Shown: in pieces, positions 13,995 through 62,866 of the stretch | How positions within the stretch are numbered: the first letter of the stretch is position 1 | Layout: the number at the start of each line of letters is the position of its first letter | Assembly: GCF_026571515.1 (NCBI RefSeq) | Contig: NW_026853829.1 | Coordinates: 248,001-312,000, forward strand | Length of the DNA: 64,000 nt | Source of the DNA: Ruditapes philippinarum | Lineage: Eukaryota | Reading direction: 5' to 3' | Translations under genes and position numbers: made by a program | Notes under the pieces: generated by a model | Databases searched by the model: none | Seen by the model: only the letters and a program-made list of their open reading frames with translations | What the model was told of the DNA's origin: nothing

Positions 13995-15423
13995 TACATG
14001 ACGCATGGCGATATATTTTAATCTGTCTGTCTGTGCGTCCCATCTTCTTTCGTGTCCGTTTTGTAACTTTGTGATACATTGAGGGATTTTGAAATAGCTT
14101 GGTATGAATATCTACCACATCAAGACGATGTGACGCGTTTACAAAATCACGTCCCTACCTCAAAGGTCAAGGTCACACTAACATTTTGAAGTTTCACATT
14201 ATCACAATTAAAGTTAATAGGTTCACATAATCGTGTTCGGACTGTAACCTTGCCATGCATCGAAATTTTTTTAACTAACTTGGTATAAATGTCTACATCA
14301 TGAAGTCGTTGTGTCGCGCCTAAAACACGTCTCTTCCAAAAATTCAAGGTCATACTAACTTTTTGAAGTTTCACGTTATCACAATAAGAGATTATAGGTA
14401 CAAACATTCGTGTCCGGACTGTCATGCATCGAAATATTTTAAAATAACTTAGCATAAATGTCTACCACATTGAGACGACATGTCGCGTGCAAAACCCATG
14501 TTCCTATCTCCAAGGTCGAGGTCACGCTTATAGTTTGAAGAAACTCATTCTCTCGAAAGAGTTTGATGATACACAGTCATGTCCGGACTGTAACTTCGTC
14601 ATGCATTGAATGGTTTTAAAATAGCTTGGCAAAAATGTTTTCCACATCAAGGCGATGTGTCGCGGCTAAGGCTCGTGTCCGTATATCCGTCCGTGCGTCC
14701 CCACTTACACAACAATCGTTTATTGACGGATTTTTAAATAGCTTGGTACAAGTGTCTACCACATCCAATTTGTCGCGGCTAAGGCCCATATCACTACCTA
14801 AAAGGTCAAGGTCACACTAAGAGGTTGAAAAGGTAATATTTGTTTCCAAACTGTAGCTTTTTCATGCATTGAAGGATTTTAAAATTACTTGGCACAAAAG
14901 TCAAACACATCATGGTGATGTGTTTCATTTAAAATTCATGTCAGTTAGTCAAAGGTCAAGGTCACACTTACATGTTAAAGGTTTTATATTCTCACGTATA
15001 TTTTAAAGGTACACACATTTGTGACTGGACTGTAACTTTTTTATGCATTGAAGAGTTTTAAATAACTTGTTTACCACATCAATATTACGTGTTATGGGTA
15101 AGGCCCAAGGTCCTACCTTCAAGGTCAAGGCCACTATAAAAGTTTGGAGGTTTTAATGCTCATAAGAAGAGTTTGAAGGTACACATTATTTTTCAAACTG
15201 TAGCATTGAAGGATTCTAAAATAACTTGGCATATATGTCTACCACATCAAGATGATGTGTCGCGTCCAAAAATCATGTCCCAAGGTGGTAAGTTTGCTAC
15301 AAATAGCTATTTATTTCACAAGAACATTATTAAACAATTAGTTACTTACATTCTGTTCTCTTCATAATACCTTTCTGTAATGCTTTTTGGGCAATTCGTC
15401 ACTTTTGCGTGACAGCTCTTTTT
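13995..15423 (-). mobile_element. Degenerate HINE-type element(s) with ~170-180-bp tandem core
   Basis: CTGT/CGTC microsatellite near 14024 and recurrent AAGGTCAAGGTCAC...TCCGGACTGTAAC...TCTACCACATCAAG units. Same family as 28229-28841 in the opposite orientation. Confidence 0.7.
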
Positions 15424-21568: not shown

Positions 21569-22680
21569 AATAGAGAAAACCAGAATCCCTAAAGAATGTT
21601 CAACACAACTAAATTGAAAATGTTGCAGGCTCGGTTTGATTGAGCCTGTTCATGGACGGTACTGGAAAGTGCAAGTTACCGTCCACGCCCCCTACCACCG
21701 GATTAAGCAGAATTCAACATTTAACACGAAAATGGTGAAATTTTGAATTAAGAAACGTCCGCAGATGTTTTCATCTCTTACTTCATGATGTATTTTGCCT
21801 TTTTAGGCATTTTTGTTGCCAGAATTTGTTTGTTATATCTTCAAATTTGTAACAACTATAAAATAGATAAATACAGAATCCCTAAAGAAAGCCCAACACG
21901 GCAAAGTTGAAAATGTTGCAGGCTCGGTTTGATTGAGCCTGTTCATGGACGGTACTGGAAAGTGCAAACTACCGTCCACGCCCCCTAGCACCGGCTTAAG
22001 CAGAATTCAACATTTAAACATGTAATAGTAAAATTTAGAATTTAGAAACATCCGCAGATGTGTTCATACGGCGGTTATCATGGAACCTTCAATGTGACAC
22101 TTCCGTGCCATACCATGAAAAGCGGCGTATGGTCCCCAAGTAATAAAAAGCGTGTGCCCTAAACGAGTAAACAATGGGCGGAACTAAATAAAATGGAATT
22201 TTGAAAGGGGATCAGAGGTTATGAAGCCTGCGTATCACAGATAAAATAGATAAATACAGAATCCCTAAAGAAAGCCCAACACGGCAAAATTGAAAATGTT
22301 GCAGGCTCGGTTTGATTGAGCCTGTTCATGGGCGGTACTGGAAAGTGCAAGTTACCGTCCACGCCCCCTAGCACCGGCTTAAGCAGAATTCAACATTTAA
22401 CATGAACTGGTAAAATTGAGAATTTTGAAACATCCGCAGATGTGTTCATATGGCGGTTATCATGGAACCTTCAATGTGACACGTTAGTGCCATTCCATGA
22501 AAAGCGGCATATGGTCCCCAAGTAAAAAAATGCGTGTGCCCTAAACGAGAAAACAATGGGCGGAACTAAATAAAATGGAATTTTGAAAGGGGATCTGAGG
22601 TTATGAAGCCTGCGTATCACAGATACGACGTCAAAAGACAAATTTAAAAAGCAGGCAACATATCCTAAGGGTGATTCAAT
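21569..22680 (-). repeat. Family A structured repeat: three head-to-tail 5'-truncated copies (21569-21770, 21862-22243, 22245-22680)
   Basis: Each copy begins on + with AATAGA(T/G)AAA..CAGAATCCCTAAAGAA (the common 3' end of the minus-strand unit) and extends for a different length. Confidence 0.85.
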
Positions 22681-23361
22681 AAGACATCAACAATAATTTT
22701 ATTTTGATTTATTGTTTTGGTCTTGTAAACTCTTGTATGTGCGCATGATCAAATTCAATTAGACCAATCTTATTTTATTTTATGCTTTTGAGTGGATTAC
22801 TGATTTATCCGTAAAATAATATCTGATAATTTCACAGTGAAAATTATCATAATATAATCTCATACTTTTCAATGACGAGACTATTTTTAAAGATTTTCCC
22901 CATGTGGTACCTCATATTTATTTTTTGCTGACAATTCCGACATTGTCAGTGCTGTGTAGAGAAAAGCAAAGCTGAAATTGATACATAACTTAAATTTCAA
23001 AAGAAGTAAAAAACAAAACTTACTTCAATTCATTCAAATTTCCTATCACCAAATAATTATCATCTTTTTGTTTCATTTTTACGGTATGAAAATACACTTC
23101 CTTCTACATGCGCATTCTGGTGGCATTTCGCTGCATCATTTATGAACATCAATAAAAAGAACTAGAATTCTACAGCTTACCTAAGTCAAACGAATATCAA
23201 TATTATATCGATGTTTTTCTGTTTCACGGTAGTTTTTGACTTGTAGTAATTTTGGAGTCTGATACCTGCGTTGTACACGCGATCTGATTGGATGTCCAAT
23301 ACATACAGGATACTAGAATAAATTTAATACACCAGCTAAGCAGACGCATATGTATACACAA

Positions 23362-24328
23362 AATAGATAAATACAGAGTCCCTAAAGAAAGCTCAACACG
23401 GCAAAATTGAAAATGTTGCAGGCTCGGTTTGATTGAGCCTGTTCATGGACGGTACTGGAAAGTGCAAGTTACCGTCCACGCCCCCTAGCACCGGCTTAAG
23501 CAGAATTAAACATTTAAACGTGAAATAGTAAAATTTTGAATTTAGAAACATCCGCAGATGTGTTCATACGGCGGTTATCATGGAACCTTCAATGTGACAC
23601 GTCCGTGCCATTCCATGAAAAGCGGCGTATGGTCCCCAAGTAATAAAAAGCGTGTGCCCTAAACGAGAAAACAATGGGCGGAACTAAATAAAATGGAATT
23701 TTGAAAGGGGATCAGAGGTTACAAGGTTTGTTTGTGCCGTGTGGAGGCTGTAAAAAGTCGCCCCGTACATTCAATCAGAGATGTTATATTTCCGATCCTT
23801 AAAGATCGTTCAGCACGACATTATTGTTGTGCTTGTGGTATTTTTAGTTTTAACTTTTCGGCATTTTCTAGTTTGGTGGTTCCAATATTCTTACTTGAAT
23901 AATGTTCAATCACCCTTAGGATATGTTGCCTGCTTTTTAACTTTGTCTTTTGACATCTTATCTGATATGCAGGCTTCATAACCTTTCAAAATTCCATTTT
24001 ATTTAGTTCCGCCCATTGTTTTCTCGTTTAGGGCACACGCTTTCTATTACATGGGGACCATACGCCGCTTTTCATGGAATGGCACGGAAGTGTCACGTTG
24101 AAGGTTCCATGATAACCGCCGTATGAACACATCTGCGGATGTTTCTAAATTCAAAATTTTACCATCTCATGTTTAAATGTTGAATTCTGCTTAAGCCGGT
24201 GCTAGGGGGCGTGGACGGTAGTTTGCACTTTACAGTACCGTCCATGAACAGGCTCAATCAAACCGAGCCTGCAACATTTTCAATTATGTTGTGTTGGACT
24301 TTCTTTAGGGATTCTTATTTTCTCTATT
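23362..24328. repeat. Family A inverted pair: antisense copy 23362-23720 fused to longest sense copy 23721-24328
   Basis: The outer ends are reverse complements (AATAGATAAA... / ...TTTCTCTATT) and 23980-24328 mirrors 23362-23720. Confidence 0.88.
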
Positions 24329-24474
24329 CTACAGTGGCTTCAACAAAAAAATGCGCTTTTCTTCTGCAAATGTGAATAAAATATAGCACTAATTTTTCTC
24401 TCCAACAAAAGGGGTCCTTCGTGTACTCTACTTTCAGTCGACAAAATGTCATACATTTTCTAAAATCCTGTTAA

Positions 24475-24955
24475 AATATGATAAACAAGATCAACAAGGA
24501 AAGGCGGCGTTCAATGAACGCAACCCCCACATGACCCAGCAACATTGGAAATTATTTTCTATAATGATGAGCCACAACTTTAAGAAAAATTGGGTCATGT
24601 TTACACCGCTAATCAAGTAAAGGAAAAATTATCTGATTGTATACTAGACATATGATTGTTGTGCAAGTCAAAACTCTCAAAAGCTTAACTAGGAATAAAA
24701 CTTTAAGTGTATCAGTCCATCTGCGCGTGTTTCTAAATATTTCATGTAAAATGTTGAATTTTGCTTAAGCTAGTGATAGGGGGCGTCGACTTTAGCTTAC
24801 ACTGCGTTCATTGAATGCCGCCTTTCCTTGTCGATCTTGTTTATCATATTTTACACTTCCGAGTACCGTTTATGAACAGGCTCAATCAAACCAAACCTGC
24901 GACATTTTAAATTTTGCCGTTTTGGGCGTTCTTTAGGGATTCTTTATTGCTCGAT
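24475..24955. repeat. Family C copies (24475-24543 minus; 24804-24850 plus) and a decayed family A copy (24715-24955) interrupted by family C
   Basis: Motif GTTGCGTTCATTGAACGCCGCCTTTCCTTGTTGATCTTGTTTATCATATT; TTACACT is duplicated at 24797-24803 and 24851-24857. Confidence 0.8.
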
Positions 24956-25938
24956 ATTTGTTTTTTTTAAATTTATCTGATAAAATGACGGGTTCATTAT
25001 CCATGGAGGTTAGACCTCATCCAATTAAAATTGTGGGACGTCCGTGGCCGAGTCATTAAGGTCGTTAACTTTTAACCGCTTGACACTGACTGCTGTCGTT
25101 TGGATTTCTTCAAATTCCTTCGAGCTAAAAAATGTGAACATTTTTTATCAATAAGATGGGGATGTATTATATTTCACTTAAATAAACACTGAATTTTTTA
25201 AACATAAACATGGTGATTCAGTATTTTTTTATCAGATAGGGTCATAAAATTTCGTCAAGTTTACACTTGCCGAATTTGTATAAAGTAGATATTACTAGGG
25301 GTGACCTGACCCTGATTTGATTCATCGATCTCCATTAAAACAAACAATAAAGAAAAAAGGTAAATTAAAAATAAAGAAACACACGCACACACACAAATTG
25401 AAGGGTCACGTCCAAATAATGGACGGCAACCCATTCTGTCCGTGGTTTCGTTGATCAATGACGGTTGCGTTCGAGATGGTATCCGGATGTACTTTTCTGT
25501 TAAAGGGTTGTTTCAGTTTCTACAAAACAGGTACGCTGCAACATGAAAGAAATCAATTTGGTGTCGCCTAAAACATCATTGTAATTTCTTAGCACCATAC
25601 ATGTTTTTTTTAATAAAGGCTCAATATTAAATTCATGTCTGAGAAAAAAAATGTTTGACTGAGAAACAGTGCAGACTCGGTCTAGTTGAGCCTATTTTTG
25701 AGAAACAATGAATGATCAATGTGTATTAATCCCCTAATCCCCAGCTGAAGTTTTACCCAATCCTCTGCATTATAACAATAGAATCAATGATCCCAAATAA
25801 TCAATATTAAAATATATTTAAAAAAACAGTGAAATAAAGAACACGACAACTGCTTGTTGATTATACTTATATAGAAACTTTCGCAAAGTATGTGCCAGTT
25901 GTTCAAGGGTACCACTTAGATGTACACACTTATATATA

Positions 25939-28228: not shown

Positions 28229-28841
28229 AAACAAGCATTGCTTAGTAAGTTAACGATGTCCAAGATAAATTGATGACTGATGACATCTCCTTAGTGTTCA
28301 ACTAGCAGGGCAATGATTTTTTTATGTGTTTTAGTGTCGGGATATTGGCCATCATCGTTTTATGCCAAGTAATTCTAAATGCTTCGATGCATGACATAGT
28401 TACAGCCCGGACACGATTGTGTGTACTATTGTGATAATGTGAAACTTCAAAATGTTAGTGTGACCTTGACCTTTGAGGTAGGGACGTAATTCTAAGACGC
28501 GACACATTGTCTTGGTTCGGTAGACATTTATGCCTAATTATTTTAAAATCATTTAATGCATGACAAAGTAACAGTCCGGAAACGAATGTGTGTACCTATT
28601 TACTCTAATTGCAATAACGTAAAACTTCATAATGACAGTGTGACCTTGACCTTTGAGGAAGGGACGTGGTTCTTGGACGCGACACATCGTCTTGATGTGC
28701 TAGACATTTGTGCCAAGTTATTTTAAAATCCCTCAATGTATGACAAAGTTACAGTCCGGACACGATGAAGTGGGGACGCACAGGCGGACAGACGAACGGT
28801 GCAATTTTAATATGCAATATGCCTCCCTTTGGAGGCATAAA
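28229..28841 (+). mobile_element. HINE-type element with ~180-bp tandem units
   Basis: AAACAAG start, GTGACCTTGACCTTTGAGG at 28460 and 28640, GGAC/AGAC tract and terminal hairpin ATGCCTCCCTTTGGAGGCAT. Confidence 0.75.
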
Positions 28842-31296: not shown

Positions 31297-32163
31297 ACAA
31301 GAGCGATCAGTATTCACATGTGTCGCCTCATGATGGCCAATTTCATGTTGGGACAAATTTTGTGACAGACGGACAGACAGACGGACAGTGCACAACTAAA
31401 CTTGGTACTGATAATTCCTGTAAAGTTTGGATAAAATTGCACCTGTAGTTTATGAGGAGTAGTCCGGACAAGCTTTTGCGTATCTGGCAACACAAAGAAA
31501 AAAACACCTTTTTATCAAAGGGCCATAACTCGGCCAAAAATCATTCAACCGGAAAACCCGTGCAATATGCGCAAGGACTTGAGCTACAGATCAATCCTGT
31601 AAAGTTACATTGAAATTGCATTAGTGGTATAAGAGAAGTAGTCCGGACAAACTTTAAAATTAAAAATTATTAAAGGGCCATAACTCTGACAAAAATCATT
31701 GAACCGGAAAATGCTGACAATATGCACAACTAGACCTGGTACTGATCATTCCTGTAAAGTTTGGATGAAATTGCACCAGTAGTTTATGAGCAGTAGTCCC
31801 GACAAGCTTTTGTGTATCTGGCAACACACAGAAAAAAACACCTTTTTGTCAAAGGGCCATAACTCGGCCAAAAATCATTCAACCGGAAAACCCATGCAAT
31901 ATGCACAAGGACTTGAGCTACAGATCAATCCTGTAAAGTTTCATTGAAATTGCATTAGTGGTATAAGAGAAGTAGTCCGGACAAACTTTAAAATTAAATT
32001 TAATTAAAGGGCCATAACTCTGACAAAAATCATTGAACCGGAAAATGCTGACAATATGCACAACTAGACTTGGTACTGATAATTCCTGTAAAGTTTGGAT
32101 GAAATTGCACCAGTAGTTTATGAGCAGTAGTCCGGACAAGTTTTGTGACGGACGGACGGACAG

Positions 32164-32202: not shown

Positions 32203-33175
32203 TCCCTATATGTCGCCACTACTCCGTAGAGGCGACACAAAAATGAAATAAACAGAGGTCATTCATTTCTCCACAATTGTATAACTAAAATGCTATGGCT
32301 CTTCAGAATGTCGCCCGGGATCTAACCGGTAGGGAAGTTTGGTTTGCTGGGTCGTGTGGGAGTTGCGTTCATTGAACGCCGTCGTTCCTTGTTGATCTTG
32401 TTTATCATATTGTATTGCTTGCAATACTTTGTTATATGGGCATATATTTAAATAAAACAAAAAATACCTGTTTGCTTACCAAAATTTATTTTATGTCTAT
32501 TTGAATAACATTTAATGCTAAATAACATGAAATATTGAATATTGTATTTGATATACTAATATCTAGATATCAAAACTTCCACTATATATTACTAAAATTT
32601 GAAGCAAATAAGGTAAGAAATCAAGTTACAGAAGCTCGCAAAATCTCTGTATTAAATTGTAAAAAGTAATACTTAGCAAATCTATATTTGCACGCAAATA
32701 TAACAGAAATTTGTTGGATAACAGTGTTTTTAACGATCAAAACAATGGATTAGAGACTGTTAGGTACTTTCTGCCTTTTTAAAGTAGGCTGATTGTGAAA
32801 TAACTACCCATACATGTGGAATATAAAAAATAGCAGTTTGAATTCCATACAAAATACTATATCTGTACTAATACATATGTTATTTAGCCAATAAAACTAT
32901 AAAGAACACCAAAACTAACAAGCTTTTGAGAAATAAACATAAAAAGTATTTCTGGGACATAACGCCATCTTAGTACAGTAACGGTCTTACTAAAAAAGAT
33001 AATAGAGTTAACCCGCTACTGTTCCGAGGTGATGATTTGGTCTTTAAACATTTTAATCGATTAAATGAATACGCTTGTTTTATATTTATTCAAACAGCTA
33101 CACCCCGTGTAAGATGACAAATATTACATTTTTGTTTTATTTTTAATTCCCATTTAAATCTACATCATATTTTAT

Positions 33176-34469
33176 TTAGACAGTAATGACACTAGTGCCT
33201 AGTCCTTGCTGAAGAAGAAATCCGCTGAAAGTTGAATAAATATAAGGATCACCAAATAACTCGCTTTTGACTATAAGATTTTGGACAGCCACAACATCCC
33301 CTTGTTGAATCTGAATGACTAATGTTTGACTTCCTTGATCATACCTACCATCCGTACTACGTGCATAAGCAGATGCCTTGATCAGTCCATTTACTACCAA
33401 TTCACCAAACACTTCCTGATTTCGATCAACAAAGATTGAAGTGTGAAAAACATAGAGACCTGATACCGGTGCAGTAAAAACGCCTTCATGAGGATTATAG
33501 CCATTTCCAATATTTGTTTCTACGTGGTCAAATGGTATGTTCTGGTGAGCTCCTAAATTGTCCACACTCTTACTAAGACCAGCGGTAAACGCAACAGTTA
33601 ATTCATTATCCTTCGTCTGCTGAATTCTGTTGACTGAAAACATAAATAAATGTAGATTTCTTATCATATTGAAACAAAAACCGTATTTCTTAAGTTGAGT
33701 TCGCAGTCTTTCGGTCAATTGGAGATTAAACATTTACATTTTCAAAATTGCCGATTTGTGCGTTCTATAGGGTTGTGCTAGCGGGAGTGGAGGGTAACTT
33801 GCACATTCCTGTACAGTCTATGTCTAGGCTCAATGAAACCGAGCCTGCAACATTATCAATTTTGCCATTTTGGACTTTCTTTAGGAAGTCCTTTCCTCTC
33901 TATTTTTTAATTCTGCTCATAATGATAAAAATGTTGATCATAATTAACTGAACCAGCAGGTATAATACTATGTTTATTATTTAGATAACATTTGTATAAT
34001 TAGGATAACAAAAGTCAAAGTCTATTCATACACCCAAAAGCATGACAAAAGGTGTCATGTCTCTTCAAATAATTAAATCGAATATCATACCTGGTGTTTC
34101 TTCAGTCATCTGTTTTGTTTTATCAAGGACACTTTTCTGTGACATTTCCATATGTTTTACACGTCGAATCAGTTGTAGGATAAAACGATCTTGATGATTT
34201 CTTTTCTTGCGCAAGGCAGCTATCTCATCCTTTTGATTCAGCAGTTGTTCATTGAGGAGACCTATTTGTTTTTTGTGATATCGCTGAAATTCGTTAAGCA
34301 TTTGCATTTGTTGTTTACTGAAATCCTCAAGGTCATCAACGCGTTTAAGAAGTTCCCGAACGTTAAAATCATCCGGAGTTAGTTTTGTGTTGACCGATGA
34401 AAGGTTAATAAAGTCTGCCACCAATGAAGCAAAATTCAAGATTAAACAAAAGTACTGTAAAGGAGACAT
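33176..34469 (-). CDS. C1q-domain-containing protein 3, exons 34469-34091 and 33633-33176, 278 aa
   Basis: N-terminal hydrophobic segment, coiled coil homologous to the paralogs (LLKRVDDLE...QKDE...RFILQLIRR), phase-1 GT-AG intron and full gC1q; spliced length 837 nt. Confidence 0.92.
33768..33904 (+). repeat. Decayed family A 3' fragment inside the C1qDC-3 intron
   Basis: GTGCTAGCGGGAGTGG...AGGCTCAATGAAACCGAGCCTGCAAC...CTCTCTATT. Confidence 0.75.
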
Positions 34470-35089
34470 ATCAAAGTTCTAATTGCAAATACTGTAATAT
34501 TTCTTATCTTAAGACGTGACGTCACGTTTTATTTAAAATAGTGCATACATGTTATAGGCATAAAGCAGTGTATTCATATAATTGCACACATGTAGCTATA
34601 AAAGGAACGCGTGATAAAAAGGCCAACATATAGTCAAATAAACTAAATACTGAATTAACACGGCAATATCATAACTAACATGAACTTCTGTTTATACAAA
34701 AATGACTTTCATATGCATTTTGCAAATTATTGTTTTAATAGATCCATCTTTTCTAACGTATACAGCTTTATCATGTGTGGTGTGCGCTATGAATTGGCTT
34801 TAATTACACAAAAGGTGAGTAATATCCCCAGCCGCCACTTTGACTTTTCGAAAAGAAAGGCTAAGGCAAATATTGAACTCGTCATATCTTTTATGATGTT
34901 TCATAAATGTACCAAATAATAATTACAATTAATTGCCTTGTTAAGAGCATTATCTTCTTTTATCGCATTATCTTTGTAAAAAACAGATTTCGAGGTAAAA
35001 AAAGTGAGATAAATTTGTAGAAAAAAGTTAGCCAAATTTGAGTCAAATCTGTAACTGATTGGGTAAAATATTTGATATTGTTTAATCCT

Positions 35090-37428: not shown

Positions 37429-39523
37429 ATACGAGAACTCTCAACTGAACTCAGCGGCCCTCTTTACTCTCTTTTCAACTACTCTCTCCAAATGTGTCAA
37501 GTTCCTGATGCTTGGAAAGAAGCAAACGTCTCTCCACTTTTCAAATCCGGTGATCCATCTCTAGTAAATAACTACCGTCCCTCTTATTAGCACTATCAAT
37601 AAAGTTTTTGAAAGAATCATATTTAAACATACATACAATTTCCTTCATTCTAATAATATTCTTACCCCATTACAATCAGGTTTTGTTCCTGGTGACTCTA
37701 CAATAAATCAATTGACTTACATATACAATTTATTTGCTCAAGCCATTGATTTTGGAAACGAGGTAAGAACAGTTTTCTGTGACATCAGGAAAGCGTTTGA
37801 TCGTGTATGGCATAAGGGCCTTATCTATAAACTTAATAACATTGGAATTTCCGGTCGTCTTTTACTCTGGTTTACTTCCTATCTTGATAACATAAAACAA
37901 AGAGTTGTTCTTAAAGGTTGTACATCTTCTGATAATTATATAAAGGCTGGTGTCCCTCAAGGATCTATACTTGGGCCACTTCTTTTTCTAATATATATAA
38001 ATGACATTGTTCTTGATATCAAAGCAAACATCAGACTTTTCGCTGATGATACTAGTCTATTCATTATTGTTGAAGATCCGCTATCAGCTTCCAATATTCT
38101 AAATACAGACTTGCAAACAATAGACAGATGGTCAAAAAAATGGTTAGTCAAATTTAATCCTTCAAAATCTGAATCAATGTTAATATCCCGTAAAACAAGA
38201 CAAGTAATTCATCCGTCCATTATTATGCAGGGTCAACCAATAAATAAAATAAATAATCATAAACACCTAGGTATAATTCTTTCAAATGATCTTCGCTTGT
38301 CGGCACATCTTGATTACACTAAAACTAAAGCCCGGAAAAGAATAAATATAATGAAAAAACTTAAATTTACACTTGACCGGAAGTCTCTTGAGACCATTTA
38401 CCTTTCATTTATTAGACCTATCCTTGAATACGCTGATGTCTTATTTGATAACTGTACCAAATTAGAAAAAAACGGAACTAGAACAAATTCAACATGAAGC
38501 TGCAAGGATAGTGACAGGAACAACCAAACTCGTCTCTATTGACTACTTATGTCTGAAATTGGCTGGGAAACTTTAGAAAAAAAAGAGATACAATCATAAA
38601 CTTATCTTATTTTACAAAATGAAAAATAATCTCATTCCAGACTATCTCTCTGATCTTGTCCTTTCTTCTGTTGGCTCCGAACATCGATATCCCTTAAGGA
38701 ATGCCCAAGATATACAGACCATCCGATCACGCACAGATTTTTACTATAAATCCTTTCTACCATCTGTAATAAGAGACTACGCTTGCCGCTTTTAAGCGCA
38801 GTCTTAAAAGTGAAGTATCAAATATACCGAACTTCTTTTACTATGGTGAGCGAAGAGACCAAATAATGCATACCAGACTTAGAACCAATTGTAGCTCTCT
38901 TGCATCTGATTTATTTGATAAGAATATTGCCGAGTCTCCATTGTGTGATTGTGGGGTGGTTGAAAATTCCTATCATTTTTTCTTTATTTGTCCAAAATAT
39001 GTACATCTACGTCCCAATCTACTAAACGCTCTTTCCAACTTTTGCACTCCAACTTTGCATGTTATTCTTTATGGAGACCCTGCTTTACCTGCGGACTCCA
39101 ACACTGCTATCTTCGCCGCTGTTCATAAATTTATAAGAGATACTAAAAGATTCTAACATGTAATATACTAGTTGTCATATAACATAGTGTTCACACAAGT
39201 TGTTTTCCATACATGATGTTCGTACCAAAACGACAAATGATTTAGAAACATCCGCAAACTCCTCTTTTCTCCATCTTTCTCTTTATTATTTTCTATCAAT
39301 TGCATACATGTATTTGTATTTTTTTTATTTTTTCTTCATTTTCTTTCTTTATAGGGTTTAATTAAAATTATAATAAGCCATGTATTATATGAACATATTG
39401 CTTTTGTTAAAGGAGAGGACTACCATGAGCTATTGTAGCTCTCGGTCCAATTCCTTTCTGCTTAAATTGTAAATTATTAACATGTATATATTACCTTGAA
39501 TAAAAATATGTTTAAACCAAAAA
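37429..39523 (+). mobile_element. 5'-truncated CR1-group LINE (RT, C-terminal CCHC region, 3' UTR)
   Basis: ORF 37712-38497 has DIRKAFDRVWH, GVPQGSILGPLLFLIYIND and LFADD. ORF 38866-39156 has CDCG..ENSYHFFFICP. Several frameshifts. The 3' end is a stem-loop followed by AATAAAAATATGTTTAAACCAAAAA. Confidence 0.92.
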
Positions 39524-44900: not shown

Positions 44901-46209
44901 ATCTTTTGAATCCGAAGCTTATCGATGCAATAGATAACATTTTCACAAATAACCCAACATTTCCTAATTGTTTAAAATAACTTACATTTCTTCTGAGTTT
45001 GATACTTTTGATTGCAATGCTGGTTTTGATAGACAAAGTCCATCTTTCTTACATAATAATAACGAATGATGGTATTACAATTTTGGTATTTATATATATT
45101 AGATTATGTAATATAACTCTAATTAAGAAATCACCTGTGCGTGCTTCATTCCGAATTACAGGCTATTAGCCAGTCTGGCAAATCCCAACTGACTTGTTTT
45201 CGGAAATTGCCTTCTCGCAAAGAAAAGAATATGCATTTGTTAATTTTCTAAATGACTTTAGAGAATAACCACTTCTTTTAAGTTCAGGCGCGTGAAAAAT
45301 AGAATCTTCTTCAAGTATATATTTGAAAGTGTGCTATATTTAAAAACATACATTACAAAATAAACGGGAATACATTATATTAATATTATGTATCATATTT
45401 TTATTATTGAAACACAAAACAGATAAACCACGTCGAGATGATACATTTTAAAGGTATGCATATTAAAACAGTACAAAATATTGCATGTATTTATTGGCAT
45501 CATTTCTTCAGTGAAGCCGCCGTTGTTTGTTGTTTTTTTCTGCTGATTTACCAATAATCCTTGATAAATTTTATGTTTTGTGCAGCATGTATACTTTTAC
45601 TGATAGGCGATAGGAAAATACAAGTATATGCCATTACTCAGATTAAATCTTTATTTAATACAGTTAGAATTTAGAATCCTCACTTCAGAAAGTTGAATAT
45701 GTGTTCATTAGTTCATTCTTATGTGCATCTGGATAGTACTTTTGTTATTGAAAAATTTCGGTATTTGTATATCAAAAAAGTTTTACATAAATCCAGAAAA
45801 GTTTTCAATTGACATGTAATAAATTCAATTCATTACTTTTTATAATGAGAGTACCTGTCTTGGGTCGTAAAGGGTTGCGTTCATTGAACGCCGCATTTCC
45901 TTGTTGATCTTGTTTATCATATATTGGTCTGTAGGTCTGTACGTACATGTAGGTAGCCTGTACTATTTACCCTCTTTATCATAAGTATGTTGAACTTTAA
46001 CTTAAGAAACTGATTAGTTATGATTAAAAAAACTGTAAGAAAGGTTTTATTTTAATTCAATATACAGCTATTCAACAAATACGTTTATTTGATATCCTTT
46101 ACATGCTTTTTTCTGTTAGACTTGTATTCAATGCATCAGTTTTCTAGGTACCCGTATACCAAATTATTTTTCACGATTATAGTTGATCCTTATATCATTT
46201 TACTTTTAT

Positions 46210-48261: not shown

Positions 48262-48622
48262 TCAACAACCAGTGACTTCTATAGAAATAGTCATAGACTT
48301 CCATAGCAACCAGTTACTCCCCATAGCAACCAGTGAGTCGCATTTAATTTCTATTGCAACCATAGATTTTTTAACACAAAATGAGTTGCCATAGCAACCA
48401 GTGACTTTCCATAGCAACTGGTAAGCATAATTGCAACTATAAACTTTCCATAGCAACCATTGACTTCCATACCAACCACTAACGTTCCATATCAACTAGT
48501 AACTTTCTTTAGCAACTATTGACTTCCATAGCAACAAGTGATTTTCCATAGCAACCAGTATTTTTTATAGCAATCATAGACTTCCATAGCAACAAGAGAC
48601 TTTCCATAGTAACCAGTGGCTT
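48262..48622 (+). repeat. ~20-bp minisatellite (TTCCATAGCAACCAGTGAC); resumes at 54835-55010
   Basis: Repeated CCATAGCAAC core in the same orientation on both sides of the nested insertions. Confidence 0.85.
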
Positions 48623-48799
48623 CTGGATATTTTCTGGTCCTTTGGGATCATGGACCGTTCCGCGACGGATATTTTTAACCAATGAAAGTGATCCGTTTAC
48701 TTCAGTGCGGTATTGCTTGTTGCTACCCGCCATCTTGTGCTCACAAGCTTTCACTTGGCAACTGCTACATCAAAAGTAAATACCGCGGTTTTATTCAAA

Positions 48800-51700
48800 A
48801 TGGTGCGTAGATGTGCCTGGGGAACATGCAATGCAGATTGCAGGTATCCTGATAAGATGATTGGGGTCAGATTCATAACATTTCCTAACCCTAAAACTCA
48901 ATTTGAGAAGTGTTTACGGTGGATAAAGGCATGCGCCCGACCGCATGAACAGTTAAATGTCAGCAGGATTAACAAAAATAAAGTCGTGTGTTCAACGGTA
49001 AGTGAATCTGTAAGAAATGCTGATTTATACATGAAATGATTTACCAAGCCAGGCTGGCTTTTGATCTGTTTGATGTGTGCCACTTTGTGGATACATGTTG
49101 TTGTCAGTTTATTTTGACAGTTCAATTTTAGTCTTCAAAGCAACTTATGAACTAGCCTAATGAACAAGTCTATGCCTGAATAATGTTGAGCCTAAAACTG
49201 GCCAGCCTTAAAAATAATTAACTTCAAAGCAACTTATGAACTAGCCTAATGAACAAGTCTATGCCTGAATAATGTTGAGCCTAAAACTGGCCAGCCTTAA
49301 AAATAATTATAAACTGCTCCAAACTTTTTTATATTTTCATAATACATTTTCTCTTTGACTTTTGTCAGAACATTCATTATCAATTCAGTAAAAAAGCATA
49401 TGTTGATGCATCATGCATTAAAATGGCTAACTTCATGGTGGTAGGCTATAAGTTACAAAAAAATAGTGACCATGAAAATAATATAATTTGTTAGAGGACT
49501 GATCTTTTAACCAATAAGTAAAATAAATATTGGTTATTTTGTTAAGCATACAAAAAATACTGAAAAGCCATTTTATAAATTATGACATTACCCTTTTCAG
49601 CTGGATAAATGGTTACTGTATACAGATCTTTTGTTTCATTTATATGTCATATAGAGCTCTACCTCCAGTATTGTTACTTTTATTTTATTTTTTTTCAAAC
49701 ACAAGTAATCACTATTCAAATAATTACAGCACTTCATGGGAGAAAATGGGCCAACTGATAAATATCCAGATCCCCTGCCAGCTGATGGATCATTGCATCT
49801 CCTACCAGACCACCACCAAGTGCAGGCGGTTGGACTTGGAAGCACCTATATCATTTGACATTTTGGTTGAACAAGAAAAAAACAAAGAGTAAGGTTAAAA
49901 TTTCAAATTTTGTATTTATTCATTAATGATAAGCCTTTGAACAATGGCACTTTTTATTTAAATCATCTGAATTTGTTTACATATCTGTAAAATCAAAAAG
50001 TGAAATAAAATTCAACAAATTTATTACATCAGTATATTTAATAGATAAATAAAAACTTGTTAAACTGACTGTACACAACTGTAACTTCAGTAGAATTTTG
50101 TCACATTGACATGAAAATTTTGAAAGAGAGTCCATGCATGTTTGTCTTAGCCTACACAGAAAGCCTTTTTACTCAATAGTATGCTAATTAACACAGTACT
50201 AAATATTACATGTGTGTTTGTAACAAATAAGGGTATGTTATAATAAACAAATTGATATTTGTTTCTAATAGGAATGAACTTCACTCCATGCTCAAATATA
50301 AATTTTGTAAATTATGAAACAGTCATAATTACTGATACTTATGCATCTTCTTTAATTATTTCAGAAATGTACAAACAACTACAGATGATGGAAATCAAAG
50401 AAATTATGAACTAAGTGGACAATGTGAAGTTGGCTGCCAAACAGACAAAGGTATTGGTCATGACACATTAATCAAATGTCAATATGTAACTTGCACATGT
50501 ATATCATATTTATATGGCCAAGTATAATTTAGTGTAAACTTATATAACCCAAACTTCTATGTAAAGGTTATATTGCAAACAGTTATTTATGCATGGCCAT
50601 ATAAGCTGCAATATGTCATTCACACATTAAATATAGTTTGAAACTATACATTTCCATGACTGCAATGTAAGAAAGGATGAGCATACTGTTCAAAAAAACT
50701 GGCTAACACATTTAGCATATTTGTCATAAATTCAACATCTGGTTCAACACGCTGAACAAACAAGTCGGACTCATTTGGACAATATACAATGAAATCACAG
50801 AATGAACTACCTGTAATCATGAGCTGTCCTTGAACCTGGGCATAGTATGCATGATTTGATTTCAGTACAACCTGGCCATTCTGATCAGTGTGTAAAAAGA
50901 AATTATTTAATTGGCAGCAAGCATCAGCAACAGTCAAGTCTCTGGCACTATAGGGACATTTTATTTCTATAATCCCTACTTTTCCATTATCACAGAGTTT
51001 TCCATCTGGGGTTGCACCTACAAATGGAAACTCATTATTTACAACAAAACCACATTCATGAATGTGTCTTCCAGGAAACTGAGCTAGATATTTAGACTTG
51101 GCTTTGCTCTCATTTCTTTTCCCATAAGATATAGATGGGGCATGAATATCTTTACTGGTAGAAAATAAACGTGACAGTAATTTTTCATTAGGGGGAGATT
51201 TCCTTAACATGATATCACCAAAGTTTGATGCTGTTAGCCTATTTTGTCTAGCTTGATGCCATGTTTCAGACATTGCCTGGTTTCTTGTACATTGCTCTAA
51301 TGTCTGTGGGTCTGTTACTGTATAATGACTTATTAAGTGCTGAAACTTTTCAGGCAGTCTAATTTGTGATGAGTTTGTGACACAGAGGTTACCACAGCCA
51401 TTTGTTGTTACAGGAATCATTGACTTCAAATTTCTTGTCTGAAATCAAAATGCATATATATTATTTCAGAGAATCAAGATGTTCATCTACATGAGGAAAA
51501 CTTGCAGCTAAAAATTCAATTATTGGAGAAAGACAAAGAAATTAATAGACTGAAATCAAAATTACAACATCTGGAAAGAGATATGAAAAAGAAACAACCA
51601 TTTTCTGCAGAAGGAATTAGAAATAGGGAAAAGGATATGAAAAACTTGTTTAAATATTACACTGGAATAACTTATGTCAACTTTTTATTTTTGTTTTCTT

Positions 51701-52529
51701 TTTTGTTTCCAAATTCACAAGAAACTGTTAAATATGGTAGGACTGACACTAAGCTACTATCAAATGAAGATGCACTTCTTCTAGTACTATGCAGATTGAG
51801 ACATGATTTTGGACTGAAAGATTTGGCAATGAGATTTAGTTTATCTTTGCAGTCAACAGGCATTGTATTTAACAAACTCTTAGATATTTTATATTTTAAA
51901 TTTGGTCAGATTTCACTGTGGCCCCCAAGGGATGATATTATATCTAGAATGCCAGCAGAATTTAGAAAAGATTTTCCTACAACCTTAATTATGATAGATG
52001 GAACAGAATTCAAAACTCAAGTACCAAATGCATTAGCTCTTCAAAGTCAAATGTACAGTGATTACAAATCATCTACTACTCTTAAAGCTTTAATTGGGTG
52101 TGACCCAAGTGGATCTGTAATTTTTATTTCTGAGCTTTTTACTGGTTCAATATCAGACAAAATGATCTGTGAAGAAAGTGGATTTTATGCCATATTGAAA
52201 GATTTGTTAAACCATGGTTACATTAATCCAGGTGATGGTATAATGGCTGATAAAGGATTTACAATACAAGAGGAACTTAATAAACTTGGCCTTGTGTTAA
52301 ACATTCCCCATTTTCTTCTTGTTCATCACAAATGTCTTCATCTGATACTTATTTAACTCAAAAAATTGCCAAACACAGAGTTCATGTTGAAAGAGTAATA
52401 GCTAAAGTGAAGACATATAAATTGTTGTCTCATAAAATTCCTACATCATTATTTAAACAAGCTAATAAGATCTGGTCTGTTTGTGCAATACTTACATTAC
52501 ATCAGAGAATATTTGTAAAAGACAAATGA
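48800..52529 (+). CDS. ISL2EU transposase (THAP + HTH + DDE); exons 48800-48997, 49730-49888, 50365-50450, 51470-52529; frameshifted in this sequence
   Basis: THAP C-x4-C...FP...W...CS|HF spans exons 1-2; catalytic motifs IDGTEF, MADKGF and HVER; all introns GT-AG. Frame breaks occur in exon 2 (~49790-49815) and at ~52310. Confidence 0.88.
49133..49309 (+). repeat. Perfect 89-bp-period tandem duplication in transposase intron 1
   Basis: CTTCAAAGCAACTTATG...AAAAATAATTA at 49133 and 49222. Confidence 0.9.
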
Positions 52530-54331
52530 CTGTCTGAGTTGCAATAACTTTGTTTAACAAATGTTAACATACTACTGCCAAATTAGTAGTTATATTATTA
52601 CTTGATTGATTTTGGCTGAATTTGTATTAAAGATATACTATGCTCAAATTTGATATTAGAAAATATTGATAATTAGTACACAGTAAATATAAAATAAACA
52701 TGTATTGACTTCACACAAAATAGATATGTTATGTTTAAAATTCTACATACTATAGGTGGTAACATTATGAATATACATGTATAGTGTCATTACAAAAGCC
52801 GTCAGTTTTTTTTAAAGAAAAGACCAACTTTACTTGACCTGTTAAAGGGAATGCAGCTTCCTATACATAGTTTATTTAATATTTTATCCAAATTCAACAT
52901 ATTCAGTAAGAATATCATAGATTTCAATAAATTTCTGTGATAAAAACATTTTACCCAAGAATGAGCATAGAGTATCTTCAATTAAATCTTATCTATATCA
53001 CATAGATGTTAAAATATTGTATGTAAAAATATATTACCTGATATGACAGAAATGAACCAAGCTGAACTTGACCAAGATCTGTTGTAACTAATGGCCTCTT
53101 TGATGAGAGAAGGTATTCAAGAGGTGTGCCTTTGGCCCCTTTTAACTGCTCTATATCATAGCTGGTAACCTCTGGAAGCCTGTAAATTTATGTGAAAGAT
53201 TTCATAAATTAAAACATTCTTTACAAATTTTATACATGTAAAATGTACAAGTATCTGACATTGTTGTTAAAATGTATATAAGTAAAACGCCTATATGGAT
53301 TTTGTTATAGTTATATAATATAAATAAAGAATGAAATTTTAAAAACATATGTGTAGTTACTTTTGTACTTTGTTTAAAATCTTACTTGTACTGAGTGTCA
53401 ACTTGGCATAAAACTGGTTTTCTCTTCCTTGTCTCACAAGCTTTGGCCACCACAACATGGTTAAGTGGGACAGGCTCAATCTTCTCTCCTCTTGGAACAT
53501 GCCATTGCTGGGGCACACTTGTACAACTCAACTGGTCAGGTACATTACTGATGTTGTGTAGTTTCAGCCCTTGAAGGGTTTTCACTAGACCAATAATGTG
53601 GGAACAGTGGCCTGTTAATCTGAAATATACAAGACTGCACATTATTATTGTATCAAACAGTGATTCAACAATGATGGTGATAAATCATGATGATGATGAT
53701 GATGATCATTTTTGTTATCATTAGATCTGTTTTGATTAAGTTGACAGAAAAAATACACCATGACTCTTCTGTCTATGATATCTTTTTTCTTTACTGAAGA
53801 GAATTAATTTTAAAAAAAAATCCGACATAGTTATACATGTATAATAAATAGATCTACATAATGGTGTATAGTATATACATTTTTTTATATTTTTTATTTA
53901 TTTATTTTATTTTATTATTTTATTTTTTTTGGAAAGTGGGAGGGGTGCAATTCATTTTTTTTATTCTAAAATAGAGAAATACAGAATCCCCAAAGAAAGC
54001 CTACTTAAGTTGTTGACAATTTTACGTACTTGATTACTTACCCAACCTTACAAGAGCAGTACGACTCTGTTATAGTATCTTTAAGAATCTCAATATGTAG
54101 AGTGTGCGGCTTTTCGTTTTTCCTCATTGATCTCCAACACCGAGCAACAACCTTTACCTTGGGTTTATCGTCAATATGAACCTTAATTTGATGGACATAG
54201 CCTTGAAGGTAGTAATTTAAACCTCTTTTTATAATCCTTTCCATAAGACTTCTGTGATTAGGTAGAAAACTAATAGATATATTATCGGGCACATCTTCTA
54301 GCGAGTCGGTTGTTGTTGATACGGCCGCCAT
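50644..54331 (-). CDS. SWIM zinc finger + YqaJ/lambda-exonuclease-like protein; exons 54331-54042, 53619-53386, 53179-53038, 51438-50644; 486 aa, open
   Basis: CSCKVG|LTGHCSH (SWIM), SCTSVPQQWHVPR, GSFLSYQ, WHQARQNRLTAS, GATPDG, IEIKCPY and YYAQVQGQL. Exon phases are compatible and the 1461 nt have no internal stop. Confidence 0.92.
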
Positions 54332-54406
54332 TTTGGATGCTGGCTTGTGAGGCATAGCAACAATCACTAGGGATTGCGCAATAGGCGGAAATAATCGGAA
54401 CGGTCC

Positions 54407-54830
54407 ATTGATGCAAGCACTATTAAGTGTGGGTATGGAGTACCGCTCAAGCCGGTGCTAGAGGGCGTGAGGGATGTTGCACATTTTTATTTTCCCTCAT
54501 CAAACCGAATCTGCAACTCATTTGTAATTGTGTTGTAATTAATGCTTTCGAGGGATCACTTTGTTTTCAGATTTTTATACTTCACAACAGCAGGTGTCAA
54601 GTGATGTGTGGCAGCTGTCAAACGTTGCCCGTACTTCACTTCAGTGTTGTTATATTTTTCTGGTCCTTCGGGATCATTGATGCCAGCGAGAATTGAGAAC
54701 CCGGTGCTAGGGTGCGTGAAGGATGTTGCACATTTTCATTATCCCTAATGTACAGACTCAAGCAAACCCGATTCTGCAATTCTCTTGTAATTTTGGTGTG
54801 ATAACTGTTTCCGAGGGATAACTTTTATAT
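54407..54830 (+). repeat. Family B structured repeat (about 1.5-2 tandem units; left piece at 48626-48651)
   Basis: Reverse complement of the 60245-60692 array; split by the ISL2EU insertion. Confidence 0.85.
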
Positions 54831-55719
54831 CAAGCTATGACTTTCAATGGCAACCATTGACTTCCTTCAATTGCAACCACTGAATTTCCATAGCAACCAT
54901 AGACTTCCATAGCAACCGGGGACTTCAAATAGCAATTGTTGACTCTCATAGAAACCTCTGACTTTCCAATGCAAAAATTTACTTTCCATAAGAACCATTG
55001 ACTAAAGTTAGCATCAGTGCGTCTTTACGCAACGTTTACATTGCGCAAATGGCGTTTCGTTGAATGGTTAATACACTAGTGTATTTTTTTTTTAATCTGA
55101 TAAGTTGTGTATGAAGCTCATGATAATGTGATATTATACCAATGTCCATTTAAATTTGAATTATTGTAGTGACAATGAATTATTTATATAAATTTCAAAT
55201 TTCGTTTGCTTCGCTCTGAAGAATAATTTATGTATTTCTTTTCATTATATGCATGTTTTTGCAAAGACATTCACCATAAAACAAGTGATACTTTATTGAT
55301 ACGGTTGACATAAATTTGATCAGCCTACGCTTTATTTAGAATGTTCATCTCCTATCTAATTCATTTTTGATCAGCAGATGTTTTACGACGTATGCTTATT
55401 ATAAACAATGGCACTAATAAATCTGACTGGTTAATGATGAAATAAGATTCTCTAGATAATATCATTACAATACCCAATACAAAATGTATATTGAAAATTG
55501 ATTTATTTTTTCAGAAATTATTAACAGATGTAAGACGAAGCTAGTAATTGATGGACGGTTGATAAAGATATAATATGACGGGACATATTGTAACTGTCAA
55601 AGATTATAGATATTAAGGTGGCATCATTAGATTGTAAATCAAGTTACTGTTTATTTATTGATATACATTAATCTTGTGACAGGGGTTTGTCGGTTGGTTA
55701 ATTGCCAAATTATGGTAGA

Positions 55720-60244: not shown

Positions 60245-60692
60245 AATAAAAAAATCTGGAAACAAAGTGATCCCTCGGAAGCATTAATCACAACAAAATT
60301 ACATAAGAATTGCAGACTCGGTTTGATTGAGTCTGTACATGAGGGATAATGAATGAGTGCAACATCCTTAACGCCCCCTAGCACCGGCTTGAGCGGTACT
60401 CAATTCTCAACACTTAATAGCGCTGGCATCAATGATCCCGAAGGACCAGAAAAATATAACAACACTGAAGTGAAGTACGGGGCAACTTTTTACAGCTGCC
60501 ATACAGCACTTGACACCTGCTGTTGTGAAGTATAAAAATCTGGAAACAAAGTGATCCCTCGGAAGCATTAATCACAACAAAATTACATAAGAATTGCAGA
60601 CTCGGTTTGATTGAGTCTGTCCATGAGGGATAATGAAGGAGTGCAGCAGCCCTCACGCCCCCTAGCACCGGCTTGAGCGGTACTCAATTCTC
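60245..60692 (-). repeat. Family B tandem array, 284-bp period, ~1.6 units
   Basis: AGAATTGCAGACTCGG at 60306 and 60590; the units are nearly identical. Confidence 0.9.
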
Positions 60693-61685
60693 AAACCATC
60701 CATAGTTCTGTATTAGAGTAAATTCCAATGTAATTAATATCGGATATGGTATATCTGAGATGATATAAATTTGAAAATTTAACAACTATTTCAGGAAAGA
60801 CATTATTTATGTTGTAGACATAAAGTAGGAAATGTTTCGTGGTGTACATGATAACAGACTTATACAAAATAAATGAGTAAATCAAGTAGTTTAGGTAAAC
60901 TTTAACTGAAAAGAATTATTTAAATTTCAATATGAGTTATAACAAAACAAATTCATCTTACTATCATTACCATTTACAGAAGCATTTACAACGTAAAAAC
61001 AAATTTACTGCTATGGAAATGACCACTAAAACGAAGGTACATTTGACATTGTTGATATCCTTTATCTTTCTAACTTGTTGCGTTCATTGAACGCCGCCTT
61101 TCCTTGTTGATCTTGTTTATCATATTTTGTGTAAATCATTACAAAAAAATGATTTTTATCAAAGTTATCTAATTAACAATATTCAATTTTTTTAAGGTAT
61201 AGGAGTAACAGTTTTTTCGCGGGTATGTTTGAAAGACAAATCATCACCCTAAACGTCATACGGTGACTTTCAAGCTCTACTGGTCGAGGTCATTTGAGAA
61301 TAATATTCCTTACAGTCTGAAAGTTGGTACCAAAAGGCTAATGTAATATTTCATAATAATGATGTCAATAGTTTTGCATTTTCAATTCCACGCTTGATAT
61401 TGTATCACGAGTTGTTATGTTATTAATTCTAAAATATATAGAACTGCCAAGTCATTTTTACAAAGAATATTTTATATATTGACAATCATATATAACATAG
61501 CTATCAAAATAAATGTGATAATATCGGCATTTCACCATTTAAGTTTAATTTAACAATTTGGAAAACACCGAATTTGCCATAACAATGCCGATAATTTCTT
61601 AATAAATAGAACAGGATTATGTTTTAAACTGAAGAAAAAAATTAAGTTTTGAAAGTGAAACATTTACATACAAATACTGTAAACA

Positions 61686-62866
61686 AATAGAGAAAAACAA
61701 AAGCCCTAAAGAAAGCACAACACGGCAAAATGTAAAATGTTGCAGGCTCGGTTTGATAGAGCCTGTTCATGGACGGTACTGGCAAGTGCAAGCTAGCGTC
61801 CACGCCCCCTAGCAAGCAGAATTCAACATTTAAACACAGAAATGGTGAAATTTTGAATTTAGAAACATCCGCAGATGTTTCTAACTAAATAAAATGGAAT
61901 TTTGAAAGAGGACCTGAGGTTATGAAGCCTGCATATCACAGATAAGTCGTCAAAAGACAAATTTAAAAAGCAGGCAACATTTCCTAATGGTGATAATACA
62001 GTATTCAAGTAGGAATATTGGAACCAAACAATTACTAGAAATATAAAGTATTCACAATTCTGTGTTTTGAGAGTAAAATATAAAGGAACGCTTATAATAT
62101 AGATAAATACAGAATCCCTAAAGAAAGCCCAACACGGCAAAATTGAAAATGTTGAAGGCTCGGTTTGATTGAGCCTGTTCATGGACGGTACTGGACAAGA
62201 ATAAAGATAAGGTCAAAAATTAAACTAACGATTCATCCAGTATGCAATCGACGATCTGTCTAGCCGATAGCGCGACACAATCTTACAATCCCTAACGTCC
62301 TCTAGCCGTACCCTTTTTAAAAACGCTATTTCTTTTTTTCAATGATCTCTGATCTCAGAAACGTAAATTTATTCCATTTTGGAGTACATGTGACGTCACG
62401 CAAACGTCGTTCGACAGCACATTCGTAACTGCCGCGGCTATTATCTACAATAACCTCGGAAACAATACGGATCGCAAGTAGTTATACCACGTGGTTTCAG
62501 ATGTTAACAAAAACTGAGTTTGCAATGTAAAACGAATGTATATATTTGACATCAAAAGGTAAAATAAGGTAGGTTTCGGGCTTGTACCGCTCAAGCCGGT
62601 GCTTGGGGACGTGAGGGATGTTGCACGTATTCATTATCCCTCATGTACAGACTCAATCAAATAGAGAGAAATAAGAATGCCTAAAGAAAGCCCAACACGG
62701 CAAAATTGAAAATGATGCAGGCTCGGTTTGATTGAGCCTGTTCATGGACGGTACTGTAAAGTGCAAGTTACCGTCCACGCACCCTAGCACCGGCTTAAGC
62801 AGAATTCAACATTTAACACGAAACTTTTGAATTTAGAATCACCCACAGATGTGTTCATACGGCGGT
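61686..62866. repeat. Cluster of family A copies (61686-62042, 62097-62195, 62660-62866; minus) and a family B fragment (62583-62660; plus)
   Basis: Same AATAGA.AAA...CCTAAAGAAAGC start and GCAGGCTCGGTTTGATTGAGCCTG core as the 21.5-24.3 kb cluster. Confidence 0.85.

Follow-up and report, generated by a model that had tools for sequence, protein, structure and literature searches.

A stretch of 64,000 nt from Ruditapes philippinarum (NCBI RefSeq assembly GCF_026571515.1, contig NW_026853829.1, positions 248,001–312,000 of the forward strand; hereafter the window, with positions counted from its first letter) contains a short sequence, family B, that is repeated head to tail, which raises the question of whether this unit is a replicon copied from a circular RNA or an element that is copied from a linear template by the machinery of a larger relative. 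An earlier note on this DNA regarded the layout as the one expected from a circular or rolling RNA template and proposed that B is a retrozyme-like replicon with a non-hammerhead core. The repeat on which that proposal was based is real. The family B copy spans 60245–60694, has the minus strand as its sense strand, and consists of 1.58 copies with a period of 284 bp; when the copy is compared with itself, 152 of 158 positions are identical at an offset of 284, versus 40–49 at offsets of 280–283 and 285–288. The tail abuts the head directly and with no spacer at 60529/60528 and, in a second insertion, at about 54580, and beyond 60694 the flank is unrelated to family B. B is also free of poly(A), a tRNA head and a real ORF, as had been stated: no poly(A) was found in the family B copy, a tRNA gene scan of the window and 12 of 49 metagenome loci was negative, and the five ATG ORFs that overlap the copy are all 31–60 aa long. 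A terminal inverted repeat is missing as well, as had been stated, but the interior of the unit has long imperfect inverted complementarity (60436–60447 with 60269–60280) as part of the predicted fold.

The second insertion had been described as extending from 54407 to 54830. It does contain a tail-to-head junction, but position 54407 is not an end of B; it is the site at which a 5.75-kb DNA transposon (48652–54406) with 11-bp inverted termini, an AT duplication and DDE_Tnp_4, HTH_Tnp_4, and YqaJ domains, which we take to be ISL2EU-like, is inserted. Because this transposon lies within a B copy, B is its host and not an internal part of it. The second B copy, with the transposon inside, itself splits a 20-bp minisatellite (48389–48623 and 54838–55003). 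Copies of B in the window and those of its sister family, A, that inform the analysis are listed in table 1.

Table 1. Features of Families B and A in the Window
Feature	Position	Strand	Basis
Full 284-nt monomer of B (head, long-range arm, core, tail)	60245–60528	−	Repeat comparison; minus-strand fold with z of −4.2 (linear) to −6.9 (circular), plus strand near −1
Upstream 5'-truncated B copy (core and tail), pseudo-LTR-like, beginning at the 5' strand of the core-closing helix	60529–60694	−	158 of 166 positions identical to 60245–60410
Head domain: nested stem-loop with asymmetric internal loop	60459–60528	−	Covarying helices 1–3; by-eye match to the Naiad_Scon 5' start and to a motif near the 5' end of many Naiads
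Long-range helix (60436–60447 with 60269–60280) closing the core-bearing rod	60269–60447	−	Helix 4, with pairing in 92% of cells and two-sided changes at 3 pairs
Core of ~100 nt, common to family A: closing helix, small hairpin, G-rich conserved strand, two covarying hairpins, possible 5-bp pseudoknot	60305–60408	−	Sequence and covariation
AU-rich tail, the fixed 3' end of insertions	60245–60262	−	29 of 33 visible 3' ends; differing flanks
3' portion of the second B insertion, about 82% alike to the first copy, with deletions	54407–54830	+	Sequence comparison
Second B insertion, 5' part, split off by DNA transposon 48652–54406	about 48623–48651	+	Sequence comparison
B core fragment, 3' side cut by the tail of an opposite-strand A copy	62584–62661	+	Sequence comparison
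Old diverged B-like copy	25663–25839	−	Profile match, E 5.5e-11
Family A long form: B-like head, ~350 nt extra including a Naiad_Scon-leader-like stretch (about 23905–23956), shared core, tail	23722–24331	+	Sequence comparison
Inverted 5'-truncated A copy, head to head with the long A element; typical Penelope-like inversion	23360–23721	−	Sequence; layout in PMC8557442
Partially tandem A copy with a repeat of 382 bp and 55 nt of leader, same core	21858–22680	−	Sequence comparison

Family A occurs at about 11 places within 21561–62867, and nearly all of its copies have one 3' end and a variable 5' end. The period of 382 bp at 21858–22625 is probably the result of a truncated re-copy, the true A unit being about 610 nt. 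An adjacent inverted copy was found once, in family A (23360–24331), and none is directly adjacent among the B units mapped by a profile in the metagenome loci described below.

A search with a 20-nt core pattern retrieved 49 metagenome loci. After removal of the duplicates L016, L027, L037, L038, and L048, 44 loci remained, including L007 and L041, which are possibly one locus and were both retained. A profile from 15 monomers, some of which come from these same loci, mapped 48 units in the 44 loci. Because all loci were selected by the core pattern, its invariance among them holds by construction; in the window, the pattern is present independently in families A and B. The metagenome relatives fall into three sequence lineages that are roughly 65–80% alike to B. 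Their 3' ends are fixed, with 29 of the 33 visible ones at profile positions 282–287 of 289 and unrelated flanks thereafter, and their 39 visible 5' ends are scattered from profile position 2 to 224. Eleven of these 39 lie in a 13-nt window at positions 61–73, just 3' of the inner hairpin of the head (P = 0.003 versus a uniform spread, for the 36 ends at or below position 170); a second apparent cluster at the core (7 of 39) equals the expectation from a uniform spread. Tail-to-head chaining was observed in 14 of the 48 units by profile, or in 17 if short tail remnants seen by eye are counted, and the longest tandem among the 44 loci has about two units. Measured between two anchors, the junction is 40–42 nt long in 11 of 12 cases and 45 nt in the other, these cases being 10 locus rows (one a duplicate) and both window copies. 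No target duplication was detected, as the longest word shared by the two flanks had a mean of 4.5 in 23 insertions versus 4.4 in mismatched pairs.

The abundance of B was estimated from unassembled reads. Run X21 is labelled RNA-Seq; its reads have loose ends and strand switches at GATC together with doubled GATC joints, and we therefore read it as a Hi-C-type DNA library and drew nothing about expression from it. Run X22, from the same study, may likewise be Hi-C-type DNA. B makes up 0.41% of the letters in X21, with a depth of about 43,000 at the tail, 28,000 at the core and 17,000 at the junction versus about 2 in unique flanks, which gives ~20,000 tails, some 40% of them continuing into a head, a rough figure because Hi-C depth is uneven. 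Long arrays would produce a flat depth; the 2.5-fold gradient from tail to junction therefore suggests dispersed short copies and not the long satellite arrays that the earlier note had set against its own proposal.

The sense strand of the monomer is predicted to fold better than its complement (table 1), and this is also the strand with the fixed 3' end, as an RNA template predicts. In the circular prediction the whole monomer forms a branched rod, and hardly any pairing spans the junction or needs a circle. A hand-drawn structure of 61 pairs is paired in 90% of 860 cells across 15 monomers, with 23 of the 61 pairs changed on both sides, none of 500 shuffles scoring as high and slid controls giving 38–47%; the relatedness of the lineages and the drawing by hand inflate these measures of pairing and covariation. 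Called at the level of lineages, the pairs comprise 162 Watson–Crick, 29 G-U, 2 A-C, and 2 other combinations, and the large excess of G-U over A-C points to a sense strand that folds as a single strand, with the reservation that the helices were drawn on that strand, which favors G-U at helix ends. Taken one at a time, old copies have weak predicted folds (sense z between −5.0 and +0.7 for 10 monomers), and the other strand folds better in two of them and about equally in one. Within the core, the three main helices covary also with family A, and invariant unpaired bases are found together with a multi-helix junction. A 5-bp pseudoknot (60381–60385 with a loop near 60357–60361) is possible in the B core, since these bases are paired in 98% of cells, the changes being one-sided only. 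A full lower stem for the small core hairpin was rejected, as 13 of 17 are unpaired at one position. From these comparisons, it appears that structure, and not only sequence, is conserved across lineages of 65–80% identity. The G-rich strand of the core (60378–60385) could also pair, through a bulged complementarity of ~10 nt, with the 3' strand of the head (60478–60486), so that an alternative fold between core and head is possible; as both complementary sides are invariant, covariation provides no test of it.

Searches for a known ribozyme were negative throughout. Rfam scans at E values up to 5–10 identified none in the window, the B copy, or 8 of the 49 loci (Rfam 15 at E up to 10 for the copy and the loci), and a conserved CUGANGA was not found on either strand of 25 copies, the few matches not being common to the lineages; the CUGAUGA present in L027 and L030 derives from the stem sequence of one lineage and is not conserved. 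Given that neither strand of these copies has a conserved hammerhead core, permuted hammerheads are also unlikely. When we mapped B by eye onto consensus structures for twister, twister sister, pistol, hatchet, hairpin, and HDV-like ribozymes, none fitted, and a SECIS-like reading made in the same way failed as well. Compared with the twister consensus (types P3 and P5), B has a similar short hairpin with a loop ending in CAAGC or UAAGC and a 4-bp GUGC/GCAC pairing, but it departs from twister in helix order and in its active-site bases, and Rfam reports no match. The 3' core of B is a candidate for either a ribozyme or an element bound by reverse transcriptase (RT); in one study, cleavage was seen for none of 10 candidate motifs that had been chosen in a similar way.

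The head of B links it to the Naiads, a group of Penelope-like elements. When the monomer is compared by eye with the consensus sequences in the supplement of Craig et al. (2021, PMC8557442), its opening 70 nt correspond to the 5' start of Naiad_Scon, where the first 75 nt resemble the head. Over nt 24–54 of Naiad_Scon, again by eye, identity is 27/31 for locus L024, 25/31 for the window at 23735, and 23/31 for the window at 60508; the outer helix of the head is found at the same spacing in Naiad_Scon with differences that, judged by eye, keep the pairing, and the starts of the B monomer and of Naiad_Scon lie a few bases apart at most. A 9-mer from the B head and an 11-mer from the A leader, which were picked as search words after the match had been seen, each occur once in the 584,131 characters of supplement, in either case inside the opening 125 nt of Naiad_Scon. 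Furthermore, a related stem-loop motif with a variable inner stem is located near the 5' start in 14 of the 16 matches of one 9-mer in this material, and the Naiads bearing it come from corals, bivalves, hemichordates, and a fish, that is, from four phyla; the B head is a form of this motif. Exact motifs from the B core had no match in the published set of Naiad consensus sequences, a file in which line breaks can hide matches. Judged by eye, family A and Naiad_Scon end in similar AT-rich stretches of 16–17 nt. The 5' end of the Naiad_Scon consensus could include a neighboring element. ORFs of the 49 loci, read by eye, contained no recognizable Penelope-like RT beside the element. In L016 (740–845; the same locus as L002 and L048), a stretch similar to the 3' domain of Naiad_Scon and Naiad_Mmer immediately precedes a truncated copy of B type that has the same orientation, an arrangement that may be due to an insertion or a template switch. 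This Naiad-like 3' domain resembles a P5-type twister by eye, and Rfam has no match on the degraded copy.

We consider it very probable that B derives from Naiads, whether or not a circle is involved. The reading that we favor, with a probability of about 0.6, is that B is a non-autonomous Naiad-type Penelope-like element whose 284-nt unit, with a Naiad-like 5' head and a conserved 3' fold, is copied in trans from a linear template. According to the describing paper, Naiads are dominant in bivalves, are 5'-truncated, form partial tandems, often have an adjacent inverted copy, and lack canonical hammerheads (Craig et al. 2021, PMC8557442). B is similar to Naiad_Scon in the sequence of the 5' head and its position at the very start, and to Naiads generally in its 5' truncation, its partial tandem of pseudo-LTR and full copy, the missing canonical hammerhead, a very high copy number in a bivalve and, as seen in sister family A, an adjacent inverted copy. 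Unlike these Naiads, B has no ORF, is 284 nt long instead of 3.3–4.4 kb, and has a 3' core that differs from the 3' domain of Naiad_Scon and Naiad_Mmer. A comparable reduction is described in the same source for non-autonomous Chlamys such as MRC1, which are protein-less derivatives of the clade with an N-terminal endonuclease and have pseudo-LTRs and multicopy head-to-tail insertions. In contrast to B, these elements reside in green algae and have microsatellite targets, and they are similar to their partners at the 3' end, whereas the recognized similarity of B is mainly at the 5' end.

Because the monomer starts at the Naiad start and a truncated copy followed by a full one is the standard Penelope-like layout, the circular template to which the earlier note traced the architecture is not needed. 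Penelope-like elements are transcribed from an upstream partial copy, as described for one Chlamys (PMC8557442); RNA transcribed in this way would be terminally redundant and would already contain the junction. In the mechanism that we propose for B, a Naiad would supply RT and endonuclease in trans, and the enzyme would bind the folded 3' domain, prime in the AU-rich loop at a nicked AT-rich site, and copy from the tail toward the 5' end. Frequent read-through of the junction could be explained by a template that is terminally redundant or is a multimeric transcript of a partial-plus-full locus; alternatively, the enzyme could jump from tail to head. Multimer loci or jumps would give rise to longer copies, and stalls would give rise to 5' truncations, many of them just 3' of the head hairpin. 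Self-cleavage and circularization are not required by the data, and a circle would generate the same DNA pattern. B therefore keeps much of the character first ascribed to it, in that it appears to be RNA-mediated and is protein-less, dispersed, arranged in short head-to-tail tandems and equipped with a structured non-hammerhead core; it is retrozyme-like at the DNA level and, as the hammerhead is absent, lies outside the retrozymes proper.

Transcript data are in line with old copies inside host transcripts. In RNA runs X23 and X24, B amounts to 0.007% and 0.012% of letters, respectively, versus 0.41% in DNA. The B reads in these runs are unstranded and mostly 90–95% alike to B, and their clipped ends agree at 0.7–1.0, which suggests that they come from a few host transcripts carrying old B copies; neither a pile-up of read starts or ends nor transcription of young B copies was seen in X23 or X24. 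An abundant RNA of monomer size or circular form, which the earlier note had put forward as a check, thus has no support in these two runs, in which, depending on the library selection, a non-polyadenylated circle could be lost. Two patterns searched against viral contigs returned no matches to B, and the single pattern match in prokaryote genomes was judged to be due to chance (profile E 0.11).

The alternative that deserves most weight shares the Naiad origin and differs in the template: B would be a true retrozyme analogue in which non-hammerhead self-cleavage of multimeric transcripts at the core or head, followed by ligation of the monomer, yields a 284-nt circle that the RT copies for more than one round. 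A type I hammerhead together with abundant circular RNA defines the animal non-LTR retrozymes (PMC7229834), and retrozymes have been proposed to be non-autonomous Penelope-like derivatives, a 2026 preprint deriving them from Penelope-like terminal repeats with a pipeline that required hammerheads (Li et al., bioRxiv 10.64898/2026.07.22.740005). Size and layout of B are like those of animal retrozymes, which are described as self-paired monomers of ~300 nt in short tandems, with thousands of copies, low GC and a proposed Penelope-like mobilization (Cervera and de la Pena 2020, PMC7229834; Li et al. 2026); B likewise forms short dispersed tandems of a repeat within 150–450 bp and has low GC. The junction is precise in every lineage, which a circle would explain no less well than a linear template, and the branched-rod monomer with its circular z of −6.9 and a core in which a multi-helix junction and possibly a pseudoknot accompany unpaired bases that do not vary are what such an RNA might show. 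The 5'-end cluster at positions 61–73 could mark a cut site, but a stall at the GC-rich hairpin accounts for it too. Against these points stand the negative Rfam and CUGANGA searches, a twister mapping that lacks the active-site bases, the near absence of pairing across the junction, the uniform failure of similarly chosen motifs to cleave, and, in contrast to the abundant circles of animal retrozymes, the traces of B in X23 and X24 (library selection again to be borne in mind). On balance, we think this analogue unlikely, though it is a serious competitor. A sharper version, by which B would be a retrozyme that belongs to the Naiad lineage, lacks a hammerhead, and cleaves itself through its core or head, either of which would represent an undescribed or rearranged class of self-cleaving RNA, giving rise to 284-nt circles that Naiad RT has copied to ~20,000 sites, seems to us slightly less likely still.

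Rolling-circle transposons, too, can have head-to-tail joints, one end that is fixed and one that varies, and insertions that lack a target duplication. B could accordingly be a non-autonomous DNA element of the Helitron/Helentron or Replitron type, with the fixed end as nick site and tandems derived from DNA circles, and the window does contain 145-bp arrays with ACGG microsatellite tails that are presumably Helentron-like. However, copies read from their ends have no TC or CTRR ends, subterminal inverted repeats or terminal hairpin, which are the defining features, a displaced strand with a fixed 5' end would be the poorly folding one, and the match to the Naiad 5' end and the adjacent inverted copy speak against it; moreover, Replitrons are reported from plants, algae, and protists. 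We regard a rolling-circle origin as improbable. Slightly more so is a LINE-mobilized SINE of the core-domain type, its central domain being common to family A: the fixed 3' end, the 5' truncation, and the core found in two families would agree with it, but the missing tRNA head, the missing simple-repeat or A tail, the lack of target duplications, the frequent precise read-through from tail to head, and the Naiad-type head would not, and we judge it very improbable. If B were an ordinary satellite whose monomers recombination had spread, the head-to-tail repeats would be explained, given that short-contig assemblies would collapse long arrays; this possibility has almost no weight in view of the depth gradient, which was obtained from unassembled genomic reads, the polar ends, and a structure that appears to be conserved across the diverged lineages.

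Penelope-like elements must recognize their RNA and form partial tandems, and Naiads do so without a hammerhead. B reduces a Naiad-type element to 284 nt, and covariation across four lineages reveals which RNA parts have survived, namely the 5' head common to Naiads of several phyla and the 3' multi-helix core. It therefore represents a minimal substrate for RT binding, priming, and junction read-through, and it provides two defined candidates for cleavage assays; an in vitro system is named as the next task in the paper describing Naiads (PMC8557442). Candidate functions for the Naiad 5' stem-loop are those of a promoter, an RT-binding site, or a cleavage element. A search of the open-access literature turned up neither a description of non-autonomous Naiads nor one of these folds, and the B core motif was not found there as text; family B may be present in Repbase or Dfam as "unknown" or as Penelope.

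The window contains several other repeats and genes. Arrays of 145–180-bp units, presumably of the kind typical of Helentron-type non-autonomous elements, are located at 2357–4363, 18735–20838, 14022–15281, 28359–28792, and 31389–32147, and two of them end in 4-bp microsatellites. A long near-perfect inverted repeat at 25884–26027 matches miRNA models below threshold and is probably MITE-like. A dispersed repeat of 50 bp, with copies that are 90–100% alike at 24472–24526, 24803–24853, 32364–32414, 45872–45926, and 61077–61129, has one copy inserted in an A copy and is possibly the short 3' tip of another truncated element. Three paralogous C1q-domain genes with signal-peptide and coiled-coil exons, which like the repeat content are in keeping with a bivalve, are found at 5962–6432, 12174–13290, and 33176–34478, and a LINE-type RT fragment at 37568–38497.
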